Positions 16,738 to 35,400 are shown, counted from the whole stretch's first letter. The stretch is DNA of 62,943 bases, filler included, from Reclinomonas americana ATCC 50394 (GCA_048213135.1; 15 parts of 15 records of this genome joined end to end with filler, not necessarily neighbours in it); one strand, 5' to 3'. Notes: a model not told the origin generated them from the sequence alone. Program-made: numbers and translations.

Positions 16738-17880
16738 ATGGCGTCATCATCGGCACCGCGACACTCCTCAGGCTCCGCAGGGGCCTTTATCGATGAGGGT
16801 GCCACGTTTGAGTCGCTGGGCCTCGATCGTCGTCTCCTGCTGGCCGTGCTCAATCTGGCCTACACAGTTGAGTATGACGCACACAGCGAGTGAGTGAGTG
16901 AGCAGGAAAGGGACTGCAGCTTGTGTATGGGTATGAGTAGAGCAGTGTGCGCATGTGGCGGAGAGGACACGACGCCGTCTGCAACACGAGGGCGCTCGTT
17001 TCGCTCGTGCACATTCACATCATCGCTCACTGACACGCACACACACTTGCCCAGAAACCCACTCTTGTGCAATCGTCGTGCATCCCGCTGGCTCTGCAAG
17101 GCAAGGTGAGAGGAATGTCAAGACAGTGAGTGGGCAAGAGAATAGCTGCTCACTCGTTCGTCATCATCTATTAGGATATTCTGGCCCGTGCACGCACGGG
17201 ATCGGGCAAGACTGCGGCCTACTGTCTCCCGTTGCTGCACAAGATCCTCACGGCCAAGAAGAGCGCAGCATATGAGCCGCGAATTGCGGCACTGGTGCTG
17301 GTGCCGACCAAGGAACTGGTCGAACAGGTCACAGACAACGTTGCCGAGCTGAAGCGCTACTGCGGCTCGTCGATCTCGGTGATTGGGGTGACCTCGGACG
17401 CGTCGCTGGCGCAGCAGAAGCCGCGATTGGCCGAGTTGCCGGATGTGCTGGTGGGAACACCGGGTCGCGTGCTGCAACATCTCGAAGAAGGGGTGCGGAA
17501 AATCATTCGTTGGAGCCAGAGGCTGTCTGTCGCTCACCATTCTCTCTCTCCTTCTCGTGCTCAGAACATTACGCTGTCGGAGTCACTGGAGACGCTGGTG
17601 CTGGACGAGGCCGACTTGCTGCTGTCGATGGGTCACAATGCAGATGTGCGAGCAATCACTGAGCGGATACCGCGGACGTGCCAGACGCTGCTCATGTCTG
17701 CGACCATGAACGAGGACGTGGAGGAGCTGCGACGCCTCGTGCTGCACAATCCGGTGACGGTGAAGTTGGAGGATGCTGACGATGACACGGCCGGCTCACT
17801 CTACCAATATGTATTACCGTGAGTCAAGTCGTCGTCATTCATCGTCTGCTGGTTGTCGACCCGGTAGGTGGGCTCACACA

Positions 17881-17914
<34 letters not shown>

Positions 17915-19231
17915 GTCGACGACGACGAACTACTCTACTCTNNNNNNNNNNNNNNNNNNNNNNNNNNNNNNNNNNNNNNNNNNNNTTAATTAATTAANNN
18001 NNNNNNNNNNNNNNNNNNNNNNNNNNNNNNNNNNNNNNNNNTTTATCAACGATCTCGATCGGTGTTATCGTGTCAAGCTGTTCCTGCAGCGGTTCGGCTT
18101 GCACGCAGCTGTGTTGAATTCGGAGCTGCCGGCCAACTCTCGGTGAGTGGGGGGTTGTACTTACCGTGTTCACCGCCACCCACTCAAGGTCTCACGCTCC
18201 ACTCCCCGCAGCATGCACATTGTGCAGCAGTTCAACAAGGGTCTCTTCCCGTACCTGCTGGCCACCGACGAGTTCTGCTTCGAGGATGCATCGACACGGA
18301 AAACGGGCGCCTCCAAGAAGAAGAAGTCGAAGAAGGCGCAGGAGGCTGACACCGAGTACGGCGTCTCACGCGGTGTCGACTTTAAGGACATCCAGACGGT
18401 GCTGAACTTTGACATTCCACCGACCCCGAAAGCCTACACCCACCGAATCGGGCGAACGGCGCGTGCGGGAGCGAGTGGAACGGCATTGACACTGGTCGAC
18501 ATGAGGCGAGAGGAGAAGCTGTTTGCGGAAATTGTGCACACGCAGACTGGTGAGTCGCGGCGAGGCGTCGGTGGTGGTTCGTGGAGTGCGCTGACCGACT
18601 CGGGGTGTGCAGAGCGTGGTCACGAGGTGCAAATGTTTGAGGTCAATGTCGACGACGTGGAAGCGTTCCGGTATCGCGCCAGGACCGTGCTCAGCGGCAT
18701 CACGAAGAATGCGACGACGAACGCGCGTGCACAGGAGCTGAAGATTGAGATTTTGAACTCGCAAAAGCTGCAAGATCACTTCCGCGAGAACCCCGAAGAT
18801 ATGGAGGCGCTGAAGCACGACTCGCAGCTGCAGGCGCATTTGGTGACGGTGCGCTTCTCTGTCGTTGTCGTCTATTTCTTGTTTTCGCACTCGGTATCTG
18901 ACTCTACCTTGCGCGTCTGCAGCCCGACTTGAAACACGTGCCGACATATCTGCAACCGAAATCGCTAAAGCCGTCACCCCTGGAGAGTGCAATTGCCGAT
19001 TCCTTCATGGGCAAGAAGAAGTTCCAGTACAAGCGACAACGTGAGGAGAACGGCAAGTTTACCAAGAACAAGGTTGGTGCTGTGCGCTTCCTGCCCACTG
19101 TCTCTTCGTTATGCCGACTGACATGGTCTGCTCTCTGGCGCGCGCGCACACGCACACAGAGACGAAAGATCGCACCAAAGGATCCGCTGCAGACACCGGC
19201 AGAGAGGAGAGCGACTGCTCGCAAACGCTGA
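16738..19231 (+). CDS. DBP9: DEAD-box RNA helicase DBP9/DDX56
   Basis: Q-motif FESLGLD...[84 protein letters not shown] and a C-terminal DPL. These match the DBP9 subfamily. Spans a gap. Confidence 0.93.
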
Positions 19232-25968: not shown

Positions 25969-26010
<42 letters not shown>

Positions 26011-26161
26011 TAGAAGAGAGAGAGAGGAGAGGAGAGGAGAGNNNNNNNNNNNNNNNNNNNNNNNNNNNNNNNNNNNNNNNNNNNNTTAATTAATTAANNN
26101 NNNNNNNNNNNNNNNNNNNNNNNNNNNNNNNNNNNNNNNNNAGTGGCACACAGAATGCGCG

Positions 26162-29100
26162 CTACAGTCCAAGACCAGCCAGTTCAAACTCGCTGCATAT
26201 GCGTTGCAGCAACGCAGGCAACAACTGGTTGACTACGTCGGCAGTGTCGGCCACGGCATGCGCAGGCAACTTGGACAAGTGCTGCAAATTAAAAATACAT
26301 AATATCTATGAGTGTCGACAGGTTGCCACAAAGTTGGCAGCTGCGTTGATTACCTCAAGCTCGGCTTGCGCGAGAGATTTGATGGCGCGGACTTCGTCGA
26401 CAATCGCGATCCTGGGATCCGGCCGCGAATGCGAATCGACAGCACTGACCCATACGCCAGCTGCAGGCAAGTCCTCGTCGACATCCATGGCTGTCGACTG
26501 CACGTGCTGGCGTTGTGATCGCAATCGCTTGTTCCATCGTTCAGTCTGGAGATCCAACCGTTCGTTAAGCCACTGCACGCGTTCCCTCGCAGTGGCGTTA
26601 GTTAATGCGCGTGGCCACACCAGCGTCGACATCACGCGTACGGCAGGTGCCGGAGGGGGTGGAGGTGGCGGCGAAGGCGATTGCGACCGATGGACCGGCC
26701 ACTGTGGTGCCGGCGGAGGTGGAGGTGGAGGTTGAACCGACGCTGACAGAGGTCGTGAACCCGAGCTCGAACAGAGAAGCGCAAGATCCACATCGGCAGG
26801 CGAAGGCGGCAGAGACGACAATATCAATGCGAGACGCATCTCCTCGAGCTCGTCGATGGACTCCCCATCGCCAGCAGAATCCACGTCGAGTGCTGCTGCT
26901 GATTGTGAGAGTGTCCGCATCCGCGCGATGACCGCTGCTTCTCTCGCCGCCTGTTCGCCAGTCTTTCCAACGACAATCGGCGCTGCCGCAGACGTTTGCC
27001 GCCGCTTCTTGTCGCCCTCGTCAGTGTGGGCGCTTGGGCGCTTGGCAGCGGCCTTGCGTTTCCTCTTGTTGCTCGAGGACTCCTGTCCGGTGCCCTGTCC
27101 TGCATCTGTGCCGTCGCCAGCGCCGTTGCCGGTCGCCGCCAGTTTCGCGGCGCGCGCTCGTGCCGATGCTCGCAGGTGAAGTGGCAGCATCGATGCCGCA
27201 GACTTGAAATCGCGCGGAATTCGCTTTCCGCGCAGCGGACATTTCGGGTTGTTGCAAGTCAGAAACTTGGATCCTCCAGGTGGCGTCGAATAAAACCATC
27301 CACACAGGCACGTACAGGTGCTGAATGCCTCGTCCACTCTCTGCAATGTCTCGTTGTAGTCCCGCAAGCCAAGGAGGCGTGCACGACGATTTGCATTGGC
27401 ATTCTATTAATAGAAATCCGACACAAACAAAGAAAGTGAGCGCAGCACACTTGCACAACTATGCACAGTGAGAAACGACTCACTCTTCTGTGCAGCCTGG
27501 CGCTGAACTTGCCGAATGCAAAGTGCTGCGTAAACCACGCGGTCTCCTTGCCTGTCCTGCGCCGCTTTTGCGTGACACGGCCTTGTGCGTCCACGTGCGT
27601 CGTCTTGCGTGCAATGATTCGCGGCACTTGCTTGTTGAAATGGGGGACGATACATCGGCTGAAACGATGCTCTCCCACGAGGCTGTGGCGAGAAAGAAAG
27701 CCAATTGCAAGACATATTAATAAGAAAAGCCGCCCACACAAACGTGCCGACACATACAAAGCACTCCGGACACAGCGCACGCAACAACTCGACAACAAAG
27801 TTGTGGAAACCATCACGATCTCGGGCAAGTTGCGCCCACAGAGACCGTCGTAGAGCAGCGAAGTGCTTGGCAATCGTTCGAGAGGCAAATTTTCCGAACT
27901 TTGCCTGTTGGCAGTGCAGCTGTTTCAGCCGTTTCCGATACTTTCTCATGTAGAGTCGGCAGAAGGCCTTCCCAATCTCAAGCACCTCCACCCCACGACC
28001 ATCTGCGAGCACGTAGAAAGCAAGAACGATCAGTCCGACAGCTACCACACACGACTGTGGTGCAGTGAAACACTCACCGCGACCAACGGTGAGGCAAGCG
28101 AATGCAAGTCGTATTCCAGGGTCGATCGCGATAATGGACTCGAACTCTGCCATGAGCTGGCACAGCAGGACCTCATAGTCGGCTCGTGCACGTGGACGCG
28201 TACGGCCGGCGTCCACTGCCGGCTTGCGCGTCCGTTGGCGAGGTTTCGCTGATGATGCTGAAGCTGCTGCAGGTGGCGCAGAACCTGCGGGAACACGGCC
28301 ACGATCTGTGACCTCGGCAGCCGTTGGAGCAGTAGCAGCAGTCGGAGCAGCAGTCGGAGCAGTCTTAGCAGAACGCGGCAGGTTTTTGCGGTACTCAGTC
28401 TCCACGTGCAGACCGTCCAGGGCCGAGAGATGCAGAGCAGCCAACTTGTGGCGAGCGTGGCGATTAGCCCACGCTCCACGCGCAGCCGCCTGCTGACTGG
28501 TGATGACGGAAACTGGTGTGCGCATTGCGTCGTCCCACGCCACTCCGGCGACGAGCACCTCCCCCAGGTAAGTCGCTCCGTCCAGATCTGCTTTTGCTAG
28601 CAAAGCGCGTAGCAGCAGCGCACGGACAAAGATATCGGCGTCCGCATCTGCGGGGTAGTAAACTGTATGTGAATGGCCACTGATAACCAGCGCATCACCG
28701 GCCGGCACACACTCACCTCGCTGTCGACAGTGAACAAGGCGCTCCAGACAATCGCGAGCGTGTGCGGACTTGCATTCGTCCTCGAGCCAGAGAATCATAT
28801 CCTCCCAGATTTCTCCAGAACGCAAGTCAAATGCCGCCGCCGCTCGGCCAACGCCATCCCCCGTGTACTTCACAAACCACCTTGGCGCGAACGCCGTTGT
28901 GTCGATGTGCATGCGGAGTCGCCCGCGCAAATCATTGGCTCGCCGTGGCTCAAGCAGGAATCGCTGAAGGCAAGCGAGTCGTCGGCATTCAATGGTTTGA
29001 ATGGCAATTAGCGCTGCAAAACAGGTGATTAACAGCGATTAGTTTGATCATTGAGGGTCGCTTGCAGTGGGCAAGATATATAACGCGCACCAACTTCAAG

Positions 29101-30849
29101 CCGGATGGAAGCAAGGCCAACTGCAGCGTCGTTACAATTGAACTTGATATCGATCTCGCTGCGCACGCTCTCCGGAGAAGATTCAAGCTCGTCATCGGAG
29201 CTGACAGCAACGACCAGGGACCGCAATCCAAGAAGCGCAATGCATCGAATCTGAGAGACACTCGCTGCGTGCGAAAACACAAAACTTAGCACAAGACGTA
29301 TTACACATCACTCCGCTTTCCTGTTGTCTCTTACGATCTTCTCTCCGCCATTTCGCACTCCATGTCTACTTCATCTTCCTCCGCTCTGCGTCTCTCCCCC
29401 CACCTCTTCCTGAGTCCCCAATACCGCTACCACTACGCTCACGTACCAGCAACAGCGTGGCGAACTTGCAGTGTGTTGGTCAAAGTCGTCATTGCTGTGA
29501 GTGCATTTCGAGCAGCGTCCTCCACCAGCCAACCAGCAGCGCGATAAAGTACATCGGCGTCTGCTCCTCCGACAAAGAGCGAGAGAACAGAGACATCACG
29601 ATCGTCGGTCAGCACGCTATGCGGCAGGTGGCGGTGCTCCAGATCCAGATCCTCCTCCGCCGTCATCTCCAGCACCTTGTGTCGTGCGTCAAACAGAAGA
29701 TGTCGCATCCTCGTCAGCCGACAGCCTGCAATAATCGCACGCAACGAGTCGTGCGCCACCGACGAGACAAACTCCGCAAGAGACAGAGACAGTGGGCAGC
29801 CTCGTAAGAACACGCTGTACATCGCCGCACGCGCTGACTTCGCATCCGTGCCGCTGGGTTCAGACGCGACAAAATGACTGAGCGCAAACGCAGACGCCTC
29901 GGTGGCAACACTCCAGAGTGTCTGGCCAGCTGCAGCGAAGAGGGCAGTCGACAATTGCCGCACATCATCACTCGCTACGAGTGTATCAACAACCAGCTTG
30001 TCCAGTACCGTGATTAGCAACTCGCGGCTTTTTTCTGTACATGTCATGTCGACCATCGATCAACAACGAGTCAGTGAACAGGGGAATAAATGACGAATCG
30101 CACACACACATACGCGCGCTGCGTACCCTCCTCGCCCTCGCGGCAACTGGGGCATTCCTTGGCGCACTCCAGCCGTTGAGTCAACGCAGTGACTTTACGC
30201 GTTCGGATCGCGGACTGTGCGTGCAGCATGCCGGCTGCGTCTTGGTAGACATTGGCCACGGCATCCAGCACTGCCGACGTCCATCGCAACCAAGCGGTGG
30301 TGAATGTGACGCCGGCTTGAGCGCGAGCAGATTCGTGAAGGAAGGTGCGCATTCTGTTTCTAACAGCGGTCCGAAACGCGACAAAGGCCTCGCCTATCCA
30401 TCGCACAGTCGAGTGTAAGAAAAATGGCTCTGCACAACTCACCAGCAAACAATTGCAACATACCACACTCAGTCGAATGCACGCCATCGATTCCGGTAGC
30501 CATGCTGGCGAACAGCAAAGAAGCGGCTACAACTTTTTCGAGTGCGTTGATGCAGCGAAGCGTGTCATCGCGGTGCTTCTGTGTCAACGGCGTGGTGACG
30601 ATCCGGTTGACAGCCGACGGCACGACATGCAGCGTCGCACACAGCAGCGTGTGTAGTGACCAGCTGTCGCCCTCGCTCTCCGCAGCACCGTGGCCAGCAA
30701 GCGCGTCGTCGAACCATGGGGCGTTGGTGCCCAGCCGCGCGTGCAACAGTCGGAGACCGTCGCAGAGTTGTTGTCGCAAATCGGTGCGTGCCGGCATGCA
30801 GGCTCCCGCAGGCACACCGGCAGCAGTTGGAGCTCGAGATGGTGGGAGC
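26162..30849 (-). CDS. Giant intron-containing Fanzor2/TnpB-like RuvC nuclease (5' incomplete, about 1,320 codons or more)
   Basis: Predicted exons 30849-30464, 30429-30127, 30034-29447, 29264-29091, 29013-28078, 28002-27786, 27682-27484, 27403-26354 and 26281-26162 join in one frame through GT-AG introns. Motifs: RuvC-I IIAIDPGIR, bridge region DGFHNF, CIVPHF, HFAFGKFSARL, RuvC-II VDEAFSTCTCLCG, GGSKFLTCNNPKC and RuvC-III RDFKSAASM. Confidence 0.85.
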
Positions 30850-31009
30850 NNNNNNNNNNNNNNNNNNNNNNNNNNNNNNNNNNNNNNNNNNNNTTAATTA
30901 ATTAANNNNNNNNNNNNNNNNNNNNNNNNNNNNNNNNNNNNNNNNNNNNGGCTGTGTGAGCCAGTGACCACGCGTGAGCAACAATATGGACGAATGAATG
31001 GCACCATAC

Positions 31010-32348
31010 AAACCTCGCGAGCGAGGCGTGTTCTTCTCCTTCTTCTTCGGCGCCTGCACCTGGCTCTCGACTAGTACTGGTGCAGCTGAAGTCGACTCGG
31101 CTGCTGGCACTTGCGTGCGCATCTCATTGGTGCCGACTGCAGGATCTACCTCGTCGACGTCGCCATCGGCCTCCCCCTCCTCACCGTCGTCGTCGTCGTC
31201 GTCGTCGTCGACACCACCAAGAGCAGCCGCCACGAGCTCGGCAACCACCACCTCCTCGTCGTCGTCGTCGCTGCTGTCATCCGCCTCGTCGATGACCACA
31301 GCGGCGACAGTCGGCATCGGCAAATTCGTCGAATTCGTCGTCGGCCGTCGAGTACAAGACCGCCAGGTCGGCGGTCGTATAGAGGTTGCCGATGCGGTCG
31401 CTCACCAACTGTGAGGCCAGTGTGTGCTTGACAACCAGGTCGACGAGTTCCTTGATGGATTTTTTCATCCACACTTTCCGCTTCTTGCCCTTGATCCGGT
31501 CCGCCTTGTTCACTACGGACGCCACAGCTTGACCAATGAGGTGCGCGATCGCTGTCACGGTCTCCTCACAGTCACGCCCGTATATCGGTACTGTGACAAT
31601 GTCAACACCGTCGGTGTGCATGTCGTCATCTGTGTGCGATTCACAATTATTCTTCAATCCGCAGTCATCGAAAAAGGACACTGGCAGTAAGGGAAGAGTT
31701 CAAACGAACCCATGGCAGTCGGGTCCTCGTCGCCGCCCTTGGCTGCATCCGCCGCTGCATCAGCATCGGCTGGAGCCTCGAGTTTGCATCGTGCCTTATT
31801 CAGCATGCTCAAGATCTTCCTCCAACAGCGCTCTAAACATGCCAATAGTATCAGCAACAACGCGTCACACGAGGAGGGCCGGCAGTGGGGAGGGTACTTG
31901 CGCAACTGAGTTCGATTCGACCAGAGTGGAAGGCGGAGTGCAGCTGGTGCAGGGAAGACTGGAATCGTTGCAAGACCTCGCCAGTCACCGCATCGGTCTC
32001 GATGAAGGCTGCGCAGCATGCGACAGTGAGGATGACACATTGGAAAAATGACACGAGTGGAGAGCAAATGGTTACGGCACCTTGTTGTAGGCGCTGCAAT
32101 CCTACAATGTCCGACAAAATTCGCTCCAATGCGACGCGGGTATCCCGGCAATGTTCAGTGAATTCTCGCACCAACACGTCATCGTCGCAGATGGCAGCAA
32201 ATAGTGGCATGTCGCGCAAACTCTCCTTGAACGGCTGGAAGTCTGCGGGAAAGAGACCAAAGGCAGCACCGAGGCATGCAGCATTCTTCGCAGCCCCCCA
32301 GAATGAATTCGCTGCACGTGAAAAAGTCAGACAACAATGACACACACT
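31010..32348 (-). CDS. Helical/acidic hypothetical coding segment; possibly upstream exons of the Fanzor-like gene
   Basis: Splices in frame (...GRIELK|RCWRK...PTAM|VSFFDDCG...) except for one frameshift near 31310. It ends in an intron donor pointing into the gap that directly precedes the first visible Fanzor exon on the same strand. Confidence 0.5.
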
Positions 32349-32448: not shown

Positions 32449-35400
32449 GCGTCGGGGCGGCGGGGGCAATCGGTGCGTCATCTGTGTGGTGGAAAAGAAC
32501 GGAGCAGGTGGATGAGACACTGATATTCAAAAGAAGCAGATGGTTCCCTTCTCCCTCTCTCACTACCACTCCCCTCTCCTCTCCTCTCCATTTCTTTCCC
32601 CTTTCCTTTCCGCCCTTTCACGCAACTGGTGTTGTGAGTGGTCTGAGTGATCGGGCCAGCAGCCATGGCCGAGTTGGTCGACGTGGCAGTGGCGTACACC
32701 TGGTACGTGTACGACGTGTTGGCTGTCAGCGTAGTGTCGGCAGTGTAAGCGGCGGTGGTTGCCCAGCCAGCCGGCAGGGTCACCGTGCCCACAGACACCG
32801 GGGTCGCGCTGCCCTGGCCGCGGAAGATCGTGAACACCGTCACGGCGTTGGAGCCAAAGTTCTGCGGCGGAATCGTCCACTGCAGGAAGATGTTGGTCAG
32901 GCCGTACTGCGTCACCACCAGGCTGGTCGGCGCGTTCGGCACCACACCGCTGGCAGCGCTAGCCGGAGTGGTGAAGTTGACCGACGAGCTGAACGCGCAC
33001 GTCACTGGGTTGGCGGTGGTGCCAGCCGGGTTGAAGGGCGACGTCGTGAAGGCAATCGAGAACTGGTTGCTGGCGCGCACGTGCACCTGTACGTTGACCG
33101 AGGTGCCAGCCGGCAGGCCGGTCACGTCAATGTAGTAGGTCGACAGGTTGTTGTTCCACGACGCCGCAGCGCCAGTGCCGTTGGTGGCCGGGATGGAGCT
33201 GGTGTCAATGGCGACAGCGGTGCCGGCAGTGGCAGCAGTCACCGAAGAGGCGCTGGTGGTGTTGTACATGTACGTCACACGGTAGTTGACGTTCGGAGTC
33301 GGAGTCGTCACGTTGCTCTGCGTGGCGCTCGAGGTGGCGGTGTTGGAGCCGCCGACGCTGATCGGGGTCGAGAAGTTGAGGCGCACGCCAGTCGAGAACA
33401 GGCGCGAGTACGCCACACCAGTGGGCGCAGCCGGCACTGCACCGTTGTTGTCGGTGGTGGCCTGGATGGAGCCGGCCGCCGAGGCAGTGGTGTTGCTGTT
33501 GACGGTGACGCGGATCTTGGTCGTGTACTGCGTGGCAGCCACAAAGTTGTTGGCGGTGCCGCTCACAGTGAAGCCGGTGATCTGCTGGTAGAAGCCAGAG
33601 GTGTACGAGAACAGGCCGTAGAACGAGGTGGCGATGTTGCCGTTGCCAGTCGCGCCGGTGGTGATGGCAGGCTGGTCAGTGCTGGCGTTGGTCACCGTGT
33701 AGGCGGCAGACGGCGCAGCGGTGGTGTCGCCAGTGCCAAAGGTGGCCGGGTAGTTGAAGGCGACGACAGAAGACGTCGAAGTGACCTGGTCCACAGAGCC
33801 AGTGTACGGGGCGCCCCGACTGTGTAGCCAGTCGGCGTGGCCGGTGCACCCAACGCCAGAGTCACAGTCACGGCGGTCGAGAAGGTCAGGTTGGCACCGT
33901 TGGCGCCTGGAGTGCCGCTGCCGTTGTTGTAAGCCGTCGAGATGGCGCAGCTGGTGCCAGTCAGGCCAGTGACCTTGACGAGCACGCGGTTGCGCGACAG
34001 ACCAGAGCTGCCGGCCGGGATGCCAAAGTCGGTCAGGTCGGCAATGCTGGTGACCACCGTCACCGCACCGGTGCCGCAGTCCGACTTGACGTACCACGAC
34101 GGAGCGCCAATCACACCCACATTGGCCGCCACACTCCCACTCCACCCACGTCGAGGTCGACGTGACGTAGCGCAGGTTGGACGACAGCGTCGGTGCCGCT
34201 GTCGACACCTTGGTGTTGTCAGAGCCGCTGGTGGCCAGAGTGCCGCTCCAGACCGCAGCCGAGCGGTTCACCAGCGACTCAGTCCACACGTTGATGGTGT
34301 AGCCTTGGTCAGTGGAGGCACTGGCGGCCGCAAGAGTGGCCAGAGTCACACCGCGTCACGTGACAGACGACGCGTCGGTAGCGGTCACAGTGGTGGGACC
34401 AGCGTCGCCGATGACGAACGCGCGCGCGGTAGGCGGTGGTGCCGGTGGCGAGGTTGGTCGTCTGCAGCACGGTGAGCGACGTGTTGATGTCCTGGAAGGT
34501 GCTGGCAGAGGCACCGGGGGTCTGCGACGAGAGACCGCCCTGGCCGACAAGGTCAGTCGGCAGCTGCAGCCAGATGGTGGCAGTGGTGCTGCCAATGTAG
34601 TAGATGGCGTTGGAGCCGGCAGTGGCGGCCGGACCGCGGGCTGTTTAGGAGGGAAGAGGGGAAGGGGAATGACGGTGAGCATGAAGGAAACAAAGAGAGA
34701 GAGAGAGAGAAAAGAGAACGATAATAAAAAGGTGCGCAACTGGTGCAGTCCAGAAGTTGACAATACCGCCAGCAGTCGGCGAGGCGGCGGCGGAAGCGTT
34801 GGTGCTGGCGGCGTTGAAGGCAACCTGCGGCCAGTATTGGCGGCCGGGGAGGAGGCCAGAGAGGGTGGCCTGCAAGCCGTCGAGGTGGGCAGTGGCGGGC
34901 TGGTTGCTGTTGGCCGTGGTGGTGAGGCCCCTCGCGACAGCGACACGCGCACGTTGGCAGTGCCAGTGGCCGTGAAGGTGTAGGCGCTGGCAGCCGACGA
35001 GGCGTTGACGTTGGCCTGGTTCGCGGTGTACGACGCACCACCGGCGGTCAGAGTGATGACGAACGTCAGCGAGGTGTCGGTGATGTCGACGACCGAGATC
35101 GCGTTGGCGGCGGCGAGGGCACCATGGTACCAGCATTGCTGCCGGCACCGGTGGGGACGACACCAGCACCGCTGGAGGCGACGACGTTGGCAGCGCAGCA
35201 GTGCAGCTGCACGGCAGTGCCACTGTTGATCAGAGTCCAGTTGACGCTGACAATGGCGGTGTCCGACGGAGCAGAGCGAACAGCCACAATAAACTTGGAA
35301 GCGCTGAGGACAGATTGCGTGGAGTTGCCGTCGACGAACACGAAGTCAGTGACAGCGCTAGCCACGCCGTTGTTACCGGCATTGGTGCCGGCAAAGATAC

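Follow-up and report, generated by a model that had tools for sequence, protein, structure and literature searches.

Analysis of a 62,943-nucleotide (nt) stretch of the Reclinomonas americana ATCC 50394 genome (GCA_048213135.1; the whole stretch is referred to here as the window) revealed a multi-exon coding region on the minus strand of one contig, which most likely represents an intron-containing eukaryotic gene with a highly divergent Fanzor/pro-Fanzor-branch member of the TnpB superfamily at its centre. From its motifs and profile matches, a Fanzor-like assignment can be made with confidence for amino acids (aa) 775-1006 of the predicted protein, and the core probably spans ~aa 595-1010. 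To our knowledge, no eukaryotic DNA endonucleases other than Fanzors are RNA-guided; interest in these enzymes comes from genome editing as well as from transposon biology. The window is made up of 15 contigs joined by 14 N44-TTAATTAATTAA-N44 spacers (window 3940-59414), and the Fanzor-like gene is confined to one of them (26142-30849, 4,708 nt, minus strand).

The core is predicted to be a split RuvC domain that comprises Asp781 of a DPG motif, Pro881 at the canonical Glu site, Glu959 and Arg998-Asp999, together with a four-Cys ribbon. Three introns (5-7) would lie inside it, and splicing them restores colinearity with homologues, which supports their removal. D781/E959/D999 presumably serve, or served until recently, as the catalytic residues of an active metal-dependent RuvC nuclease, and by analogy with characterised Fanzors the protein may be directed to its DNA target by a transcript made from the 3' end of the locus. 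Metal-dependent RNA-guided DNA cleavage and transposon retention or homing are described for characterised Fanzors (PMC10432273, PMC10530073, PMC13565253). Only 20 nt follow the stop codon on this contig, so the 3' guide-RNA region is absent from it.

Homology of the core to TnpB and Fanzor proteins

A reference set was obtained by scanning IMG/VR for the zinc-finger motif, written as a degenerate DNA pattern, which returned 122 loci; 49 of these, with an open reading frame (ORF) of >=380 aa and the motif ~50-130 aa from the C-terminus, were kept. The set is viral and of TnpB/Fanzor2 type, includes 20 sequences from contigs tagged GVMAG and contains no Fanzor1 sequences. PF07282 scored above its cutoff in all 21 references tested, most of which also matched PF01385 and/or PF12323. 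When an alignment of 20 references was searched against the PDB, the top match was 9b0l ('TnpB-like protein L79', 520 aa; E 2.3e-86), followed by TnpB and Cas12f chains, and no chain named Fanzor or SpuFz1 was returned at E<=10.

Positions 276-462 of a hidden Markov model (HMM) built from the 49 references align to aa 775-1005 of the spliced protein in one colinear block that runs through exons 5-8. The HMM scores 21.0 bits against the spliced protein (E 7.9e-9, single target) and 27.2 bits against aa 740-1030, where the best of 2,000 shuffles reached 4.9 and the reversed sequence 0.8. Scores of the individual exons are additive (exon 5, 4.5 bits; exon 7, 3.2; exon 8, 5.6; exons 5-7 together, 16.3), and among 1,261 six-frame ORFs of the window the top three are those that carry exon 8, exons 5-6 and exon 7. 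Profile-profile comparison by hhalign gave a probability of 96.3% (E 1.6e-9) and is confident only from RuvC-I onward. An ESM Atlas look-up with the first 102 aa of exon 8 returned PF07282 clusters as 28 of 30 matches (score 0.93), and the top NCBIfam match was NF040570 (guided_TnpB, profile positions 337-383 of 389). Homology to TnpB/Fanzor thus appears remote but well supported. An earlier reading of the window from sequence alone, referred to here as the sequence-only reading, had proposed a TnpB/Fanzor-type RuvC and zinc-ribbon core; the 27.2-bit colinear match bears this out, as do the D/E/D residues on invariant columns. The family profile searches it had suggested succeeded with the custom 49-sequence HMM and with hhalign, but not with Pfam on single exons.

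The residues that define the core are encoded as follows:

28123-28121, minus strand: D781 of RuvC-I, on an invariant Asp column
27331-27329, minus strand: alternative Glu E959, on an invariant Glu column
27310-27302, minus strand: Cys966 and Cys968, a CxC first knuckle
27256-27239, minus strand: Cys984 and Cys989, a CxxxxC second knuckle
27214-27209, minus strand: R998-D999, the RD motif
27211-27209, minus strand: D999 of RuvC-III, on an invariant Asp column

All motifs quoted in the sequence-only reading are present, and its catalytic codons (D 28121-28123, E 27329-27331, D 27209-27211) were located correctly. The query agrees with the consensus in 21 of the 37 reference columns that are strongly conserved, and in 17 of 29 when only columns not fixed by the search pattern are counted. 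Among those kept are D781, P782, G783, R785, H862, P881, F927, L931, E959, C966, C968, G969, C984, C989, R998, D999 and A1003. The columns of D781, G783, R998 and D999 are each fixed in 49/49 references, that of P782 in 41/49; H862 falls on a column with His in 38/49, and P881 on the canonical RuvC-II Glu column, where 35/49 references also have Pro. C966, C968, C984 and C989 occupy the four invariant Cys columns of the 49 references, some of which share the CxxxxC second knuckle and none the CxC. The alternative Glu lies six residues before the first zinc Cys (E959 + 7 = C966), and the DPG, I-V-P-x-F and G-G-S-K-x-x-x-C patterns agree with the reference-set consensus. A tandem repeat (9/12/21 nt) at 28314-28371 encodes a low-complexity Ala/Pro/Thr linker just before RuvC-I.

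The superfamily motif of Bao and Jurka (2013) is described as a RuvC-I Asp followed after 125-275 residues by [TS]-[TS]-x-x-Cys, a C4 finger of the form CxxC...CxxC, and an RD 5-50 residues later (PMC3627910). Here, D781 is followed after 180 residues by S962-T963-C964-T965-C966 and R998-D999 lies 8 residues past C989, while the knuckle spacing deviates (CxC and CxxxxC). The combination of DPG and an alternative Glu, which is described as a Fanzor/pro-Fanzor fingerprint and as present in <1% of TnpB homologues (Yoon 2023; PMC10711439), is found as D781-P782-G783, Pro at the canonical Glu site and E959. The strict regular expression (RegEx) given in the same paper, DPG-x(120,160)-E-x6-CxxC-x(12,18)-CxxC-x(4,8)-D, does not match: 175 residues separate DPG from E, the knuckles are CxC/CxxxxC and 9 residues precede D, so that the one element in agreement is the 15-residue gap that separates the knuckles.

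Gene model and coding evidence

Removal of eight GT-AG introns from the minus strand gives 3,972 nt, that is 1,323 codons plus a TAG stop at 26164-26162, in a reading frame that is open to the 5' end of the contig. This reproduces exactly the introns of 34, 92, 182, 77, 75, 103, 80 and 72 nt and the open frame of ~1,320 codons that the sequence-only reading had put forward. The model, in the direction of transcription, is:

30464-30848, minus strand: exon 1, aa 1-128; frame open to the contig end, coding signature rich in G at the first codon position, no family match
30797-30795, minus strand: first Met of the model (M18), in exon 1
30430-30463, minus strand: candidate intron 1, 34 nt, GTATGT...CAG; doubtful, very short
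30127-30429, minus strand: exon 2, aa 129-229; coding signature
30035-30126, minus strand: candidate intron 2, 92 nt, GTACGC...CAG
29447-30034, minus strand: exon 3, aa 230-425; helical, orphan, no recognisable relatives
29265-29446, minus strand: candidate intron 3, 182 nt, GTACGT...CAG
29091-29264, minus strand: exon 4, aa 426-483; the unspliced frame ends at TAA 29031-29029
29014-29090, minus strand: candidate intron 4, 77 nt, GTGCGC...TTTTGCAG; candidate joint between the N-terminal and nuclease parts, with TATATAT at 29082-29076
28078-29013, minus strand: exon 5, aa 484-795; M518 (28912-28910), Ala/Pro/Thr linker, RuvC-I IIAIDPGIR with D781
28003-28077, minus strand: intron 5, 75 nt, GTGAGT...CAG; in frame, stop-free
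27786-28002, minus strand: exon 6, aa 796-867; helical, ends DGFHNFVVE, with H862
27683-27785, minus strand: intron 6, 103 nt; weak donor GTTGCG, acceptor with a good pyrimidine tract and CAG
27484-27682, minus strand: exon 7, aa 868-934; CIVPHF with P881 (27645-27643), FGKFSARL
27404-27483, minus strand: intron 7, 80 nt, GTGAGT...TAG
26354-27403, minus strand: exon 8, aa 935-1284; ~75 aa of nuclease core, then a tail of ~275 aa, in one open frame
27209-27331, minus strand: TNB/zinc-ribbon and RuvC-III within exon 8; E959, four Cys, R998-D999
26282-26353, minus strand: candidate intron 8, 72 nt, GTAATC...TTTGCAG; if retained, the protein ends at TAG 26308-26306
26162-26281, minus strand: exon 9, aa 1285-1323 and the TAG stop at 26164-26162

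The multi-exon coding region on the minus strand is real, as follows from a path null test, from GC dips in the introns and from base composition by codon position. In the null test, dynamic programming was used to find the fewest GT-AG introns (30-200 nt) that give a stop-free crossing of the contig. Six sufficed on the minus strand, ten were needed on the plus strand, and composition-matched shuffles required 11-15 (30/30). Minus-strand solutions with 6-7 introns give up only 327-402 nt, and 0/8 further shuffles could be crossed with <=10 introns. The GC content of all eight introns (0.39-0.53) is lower than that of all nine exons (0.53-0.63). G occupies the first codon position at frequencies of 0.37-0.41 in exons 1-4 and of 0.41 and 0.35 in exons 5 and 8, compared with 0.20-0.30 in four antisense ORFs. 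Even unspliced, the minus-strand ORFs reach 543, 365, 221 and 206 codons.

Support for the individual introns is uneven. Intron 5 is not required by the openness of the frame, because it is itself in frame and stop-free, and its support comes from splice consensus, a GC dip and homologues that have no insertion at that point. At intron 6 a frame change is necessary, with an uncertain exact donor and many alternatives, while intron 1 has 31 frame-keeping alternatives, one of them of 70 nt (30463-30394). Scoring of alternative splice sites with the custom HMM gave 12-33 bits and did not single out exact junctions.

The C-terminal tail is not in doubt, since it shares an exon and a 365-codon ORF with RuvC-III. 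It is of low complexity, extends ~320 aa past that motif, with ~275 codons in exon 8 and 39 from exon 9 if intron 8 is removed, and carries NLS-like (nuclear localisation signal-like) basic patches (KRKRK, 27067-27053; KKRR, 27010-26999), an acidic stretch, two poly-Pro runs encoded by a direct repeat (26646-26671/26706-26731), and a helical end. Pfam assigned no family to pieces of the tail. An acidic stretch followed by L-A-L-I-L-S-S-L at aa 1119-1133 (26807-26851, minus strand) is presumably similar to a ubiquitin-interacting motif, although this piece had no Pfam support. Exons 1-4 (~480 aa) are coding, on the same strand as the nuclease, and orphan: they showed no similarity to anything in Pfam, nor in a word-indexed search with exon 3, and ESM Atlas gave no usable hit (recognition 1334).

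Weighing the alternatives

Several observations count against assignment of the gene to the TnpB superfamily or complicate it. In the curated libraries, Pfam (E<=1) returned no PF07282, PF01385 or PF12323 match for contiguous translations of the eight minus-strand exon ORFs, PHROGs no match for the exon ORFs, and NF040570 reached just 12.3 bits (cutoff 100) with contiguous exon translations; the 20-sequence profile likewise reached only 13.2 bits on the spliced protein. Direct searches were also negative: phmmer with a 408-aa query covering aa 485-867 found 0 matches among 1.84e9 representative proteins, word-indexed searches with the 543-aa ORF (among proteins of near length), the exon-3 ORF (among longer ones) and residues 1-110 of exon 8 (E<=10) found no homologue, and PDB sequence searches with exon 8 (365 aa and 84 aa) returned only low-complexity or chance matches. 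No likeness to WED, REC or HTH (helix-turn-helix) domains could be detected in aa 484-775, which precede RuvC-I. Within the core, near-invariant non-catalytic residues are changed (K864F, R917W, K964C, N1001K, N1005S, I1006M), and the zinc knuckles are CxC and CxxxxC, not CxxC. Single-sequence AlphaFold2 models were unusable both for exon 3 (195 aa; predicted local distance difference test score (pLDDT) 41.8) and for the 375 aa from M518 through exon 6 (pLDDT 37.7). The intron set of the model is not unique, and all splice junctions are predictions. Finally, signs of a mobile element or guide RNA were absent: an RNA-structure scan of the contig (114 windows) had a lowest z of -2.52 with no outlier, the repeats on the contig belong to short low-complexity families only and include no terminal inverted repeats, no transposase or recombinase was found among the contig ORFs or 138 ORFs of >=140 aa elsewhere in the window, and no second copy of the gene occurs in the 63-kb window.

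Y961F is also among the lost consensus residues. Further null results came from Rfam, with 0 matches on the whole window, from Pfam on 14 plus-strand ORFs of the contig, which gave nothing relevant, and from searches for related loci in viral and metagenome contigs, which gave pattern matches, none of them confirmed.

The extent of the protein depends on whether exons 1-4 belong to it. The sequence-only reading had counted ~780 aa or more before RuvC-I and ~320 aa after RuvC-III; the latter stands, as the tail shares an exon with RuvC-III, but exons 1-4 are not tied to the nuclease. Chances are about even that they are spliced onto it, which would give a protein of at least 1,306-1,323 aa; if not, a start at Met518 would give one of ~806 aa. 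It is quite plausible, though we lean somewhat the other way, that there are two adjacent genes, in which an unrelated upstream gene (exons 1-4) ends at TAA 29031-29029 and a ~806-aa Fanzor-like gene starts at Met518 (28912-28910). The 263 aa that this start leaves before RuvC-I correspond to the reference norm, as RuvC-I of the references begins at HMM position 276, and the lack of similarity of exons 1-4 to anything points the same way, as do the implausibly short 34-nt intron 1 (other introns, 72-182 nt) and the TATATAT in candidate intron 4, a possible promoter element ~165 nt upstream of the ATG. Same-strand ORFs on the neighbouring contig suggest a long independent upstream gene, which may perhaps continue on contig 30950-32348. 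However, just 117 nt separate the exon-4 stop from Met518, the 34 exon-5 codons upstream of Met518 are open, and codon-position composition is the same on both sides; moreover, candidate intron 4 has a typical length (77 nt), a lowered GC content (0.455) and a CAG acceptor that is strong and rich in pyrimidines, and it joins the two parts without a stop.

A second alternative concerns function. The gene could descend from a Fanzor and now serve the host, or it could encode a nuclease whose role has changed; either way, the triad would have been kept, RNA-guided transposon homing lost, and new N- and C-terminal modules would target or regulate the enzyme. This is possible but doubtful. In its favour, the gene sits on a very long terminal branch (2.25; the 49 references have a median of 0.56 and none exceeds 1.37), near-invariant residues outside the catalytic set have been lost at several positions, no WED/REC/HTH region can be recognised, the long tail carries NLS-like patches, the gene is fully intronised, and transposon ends, a transposase and an extra copy are all missing from the 63-kb window. 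The copy count and the check for shared ends proposed in the sequence-only reading were covered within the window, where neither an extra copy nor terminal repeats were seen, but with an assembly this fragmented, little can be read from the lack of transposon features on 4.7 kb. In addition, intron-rich transposon-borne Fanzors are documented (PMC10530073), and the known domesticated TldRs are described as nuclease-dead (PMC13565253) whereas the triad here is intact.

We consider it improbable that the locus is a decaying transposon relic or pseudogene, with an open frame that arises in part because GT-AG 'introns' can be picked freely and so mask frameshifts. The non-unique intron set, the 34-nt intron 1, the poor donor of intron 6, the deviant zinc knuckles and the lost conserved residues would all fit such decay. 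Nevertheless, the unspliced ORFs are already long, shuffles need 11-15 introns against 6-8 on the real strand, and every proposed intron shows a GC dip. The three catalytic residues and four Cys have also survived on a branch of >2 substitutions per site, which argues for long-term purifying selection, although genes of this kind are also the ones most readily detected.

A chance combination of short motifs, to which the insignificant single-exon matches in curated libraries and the 13.2 bits of the 20-sequence profile might be ascribed, is very improbable and already close to refuted by the margin over 2,000 shuffles, the colinearity across four exons, the ranking of the three core ORFs within the window, the hhalign probability and the independent language-model look-up that gave PF07282. 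A divergent Fanzor-like nuclease encoded by an intron-containing gene is retained as the preferred interpretation.

Turning to the setting of the gene, the contigs of the window seem to be ordered and oriented, as in a scaffold, because a DEAD-domain ORF (17175-17819, plus strand) closes one contig and a Helicase_C ORF (18147-18929, plus strand) opens the next, so that the two flank one spacer on the same strand. The idea that neighbouring contigs are unlinked was rejected on these grounds. Other contigs encode ordinary eukaryotic domains according to Pfam (WW, PAN, WD40, SAGA-Tad1, purple acid phosphatase C). A (GA)n microsatellite of ~38 copies (25969-26041) ends the contig downstream of the nuclease gene and probably explains why the assembly breaks off beyond the stop codon. 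On contig 30950-32348, upstream of the open 5' end of the gene, there are minus-strand ORFs at 31854-32348, 31280-31699 and 30952-31401, the last with a long Asp/Glu run, a Lys-rich patch and a donor-like GAG|GTTTGT just before the gap; Pfam gave no match for them. The minus strand of this contig can be crossed stop-free with 2 introns, against >=3-5 in 6 shuffles; additional 5' exons, or else an independent gene, could lie on it. Two gaps upstream of the gene contig, a Thr/Ser/Ala-rich 625-aa ORF with no Pfam family (32481-34355, minus strand) looks like a mucin-like or surface protein.

Novelty and comparison with known systems

The RuvC phylogeny suggested in the sequence-only reading was calculated with FastTree for the query and the 49 viral references (187 columns, 50 sequences), and in it the query stands alone on its very long branch (2.25). 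Closest by pairwise comparison are five references of 432-469 aa from large viral contigs (L023, L054, L015, L075 and L039; E 7e-6 to 7e-5, in a small set). These five are solo TnpB/Fanzor2-type genes with an HTH domain that are flanked by common viral genes (kinase, ornithine decarboxylase, polysaccharide lyase), with no recombinase in their 2-kb flanks. The Fanzor2/TnpB side is weakly favoured, because the Fanzor2-type profile finds the query but no PDB chain named Fanzor or SpuFz1. The Fanzor2 pattern invoked in the sequence-only reading does fit, in that DPG, I-V-P-x-F and G-G-S-K agree with the reference consensus, but neither an HTH domain nor an IS607 recombinase was found, and the label 'Fanzor2' is at present tentative.

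The exceptional size and heavy intronisation put forward in the sequence-only reading need to be toned down. The intron-containing gene is real, but its load, two per kb of coding sequence, is ordinary, because published Fanzor genes are reported to reach ~9.6 introns/kb (PMC10530073). As to size, the long tail stands. The main texts give ~500-800 aa for Fanzors (PMC10530073, PMC10711439), but the rows listed of the sequence table in PMC10530073 include entries of 1,036 and 1,686 residues, possibly prediction artefacts, so a size of >1,000 aa is not unprecedented. When six motif words of the query were compared with the first 400 characters of each Fanzor entry in that table, only the generic 'AIDPGIR' was found, 4 times. 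What is unusual is the combination of a core missed by standard models, non-canonical zinc knuckles, an unrecognisable N-terminal half and a long fused tail. The full-text literature searched contained no account of a domesticated Fanzor or of a giant one with several domains.

We regard the 'giant fusion', 'domesticated' and 'new OMEGA subtype' readings as hypotheses. The most far-reaching combination, a single protein of >1,300 residues in which an intact, remodelled Fanzor core is joined to an orphan, largely helical ~590-aa N-terminal module and a 320-aa tail with NLS-like patches, encoded by a host-resident, intron-saturated, single-copy gene of a new OMEGA branch, is unlikely. If true, such a fusion would be a eukaryotic counterpart to the prokaryotic TnpB exaptations. 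Should the gene turn out to be single-copy and conserved, it would be a candidate for the first domesticated Fanzor, and if the tail, and possibly the N-terminal module, belong to the enzyme, they could reveal regulation by host or transposon, localisation, or retargeting of the nuclease. More generally, the locus shows that members of the Fanzor lineage can drift beyond Pfam and NCBIfam thresholds and the reach of a billion-sequence phmmer search while keeping the DPG/alternative-Glu triad. Because of such drift, ORF- and HMM-based surveys of intron-rich protist genomes probably under-count Fanzors.

Among known systems, Fanzor2 offers the most detailed comparison. Mimivirus ApmFz2 is described as a 520-aa Fanzor2 with the triad D324/E467/D501, for which PDB code 9b0l is cited (PMC11832414). 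With Fanzor2 proteins the query shares DPG, I-l-l-P-x-f at the canonical Glu site, a catalytic Glu placed six residues ahead of the zinc finger, a 'G-S-K-x-F-x-C' pattern that lies between the two knuckles, and the RD of RuvC-III. In contrast, the HTH_OrfB_IS605 and WED/REC regions are not recognisable in the query by Pfam on exon ORFs or by hhalign, D and E are 178 aa apart (143 in ApmFz2), the first knuckle is CxC, and the RD-x-N-x-A-x-N-I helix has other residues in place of N1001, N1005 and I1006. The query tail also runs ~320 aa past RuvC-III, where the references end within 15-40 aa, and the gene differs in its eight predicted introns, in having no serine recombinase found nearby and in its very long branch.

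The pro-Fanzor/TnpB2 proteins (IS607 TnpBs) have the same DPG/alternative-Glu RuvC fingerprint (PMC10711439), but are prokaryotic, intron-less and 350-550 aa long, and the strict RegEx does not match the query. Fanzor1 (SpuFz1, 638 aa; Chlamydomonas CrFNuc, which has introns) resembles the query in being eukaryotic, in that introns are possible, and in DPG and the alternative Glu. Fanzor1 proteins are reported to exceed TnpB in size and to carry insertions in REC, RuvC and the zinc finger, and some reach ~800 aa (PMC10711439, PMC10530073, PMC10432273). The exact TDG of the Fanzor1 WED motif is absent from the query, which has T-G-D-G at aa 534-537, and neither transposon ends nor a partner transposase were seen on its 4.7-kb contig. 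Lastly, TldR and Cas12 are precedents for TnpB-derived genes that left the transposon life style and gained extra domains (PMC13565253). These are prokaryotic, and TldRs are nuclease-dead, whereas the gene described here, with no guide-RNA locus visible on its contig, is eukaryotic and has kept its triad intact.

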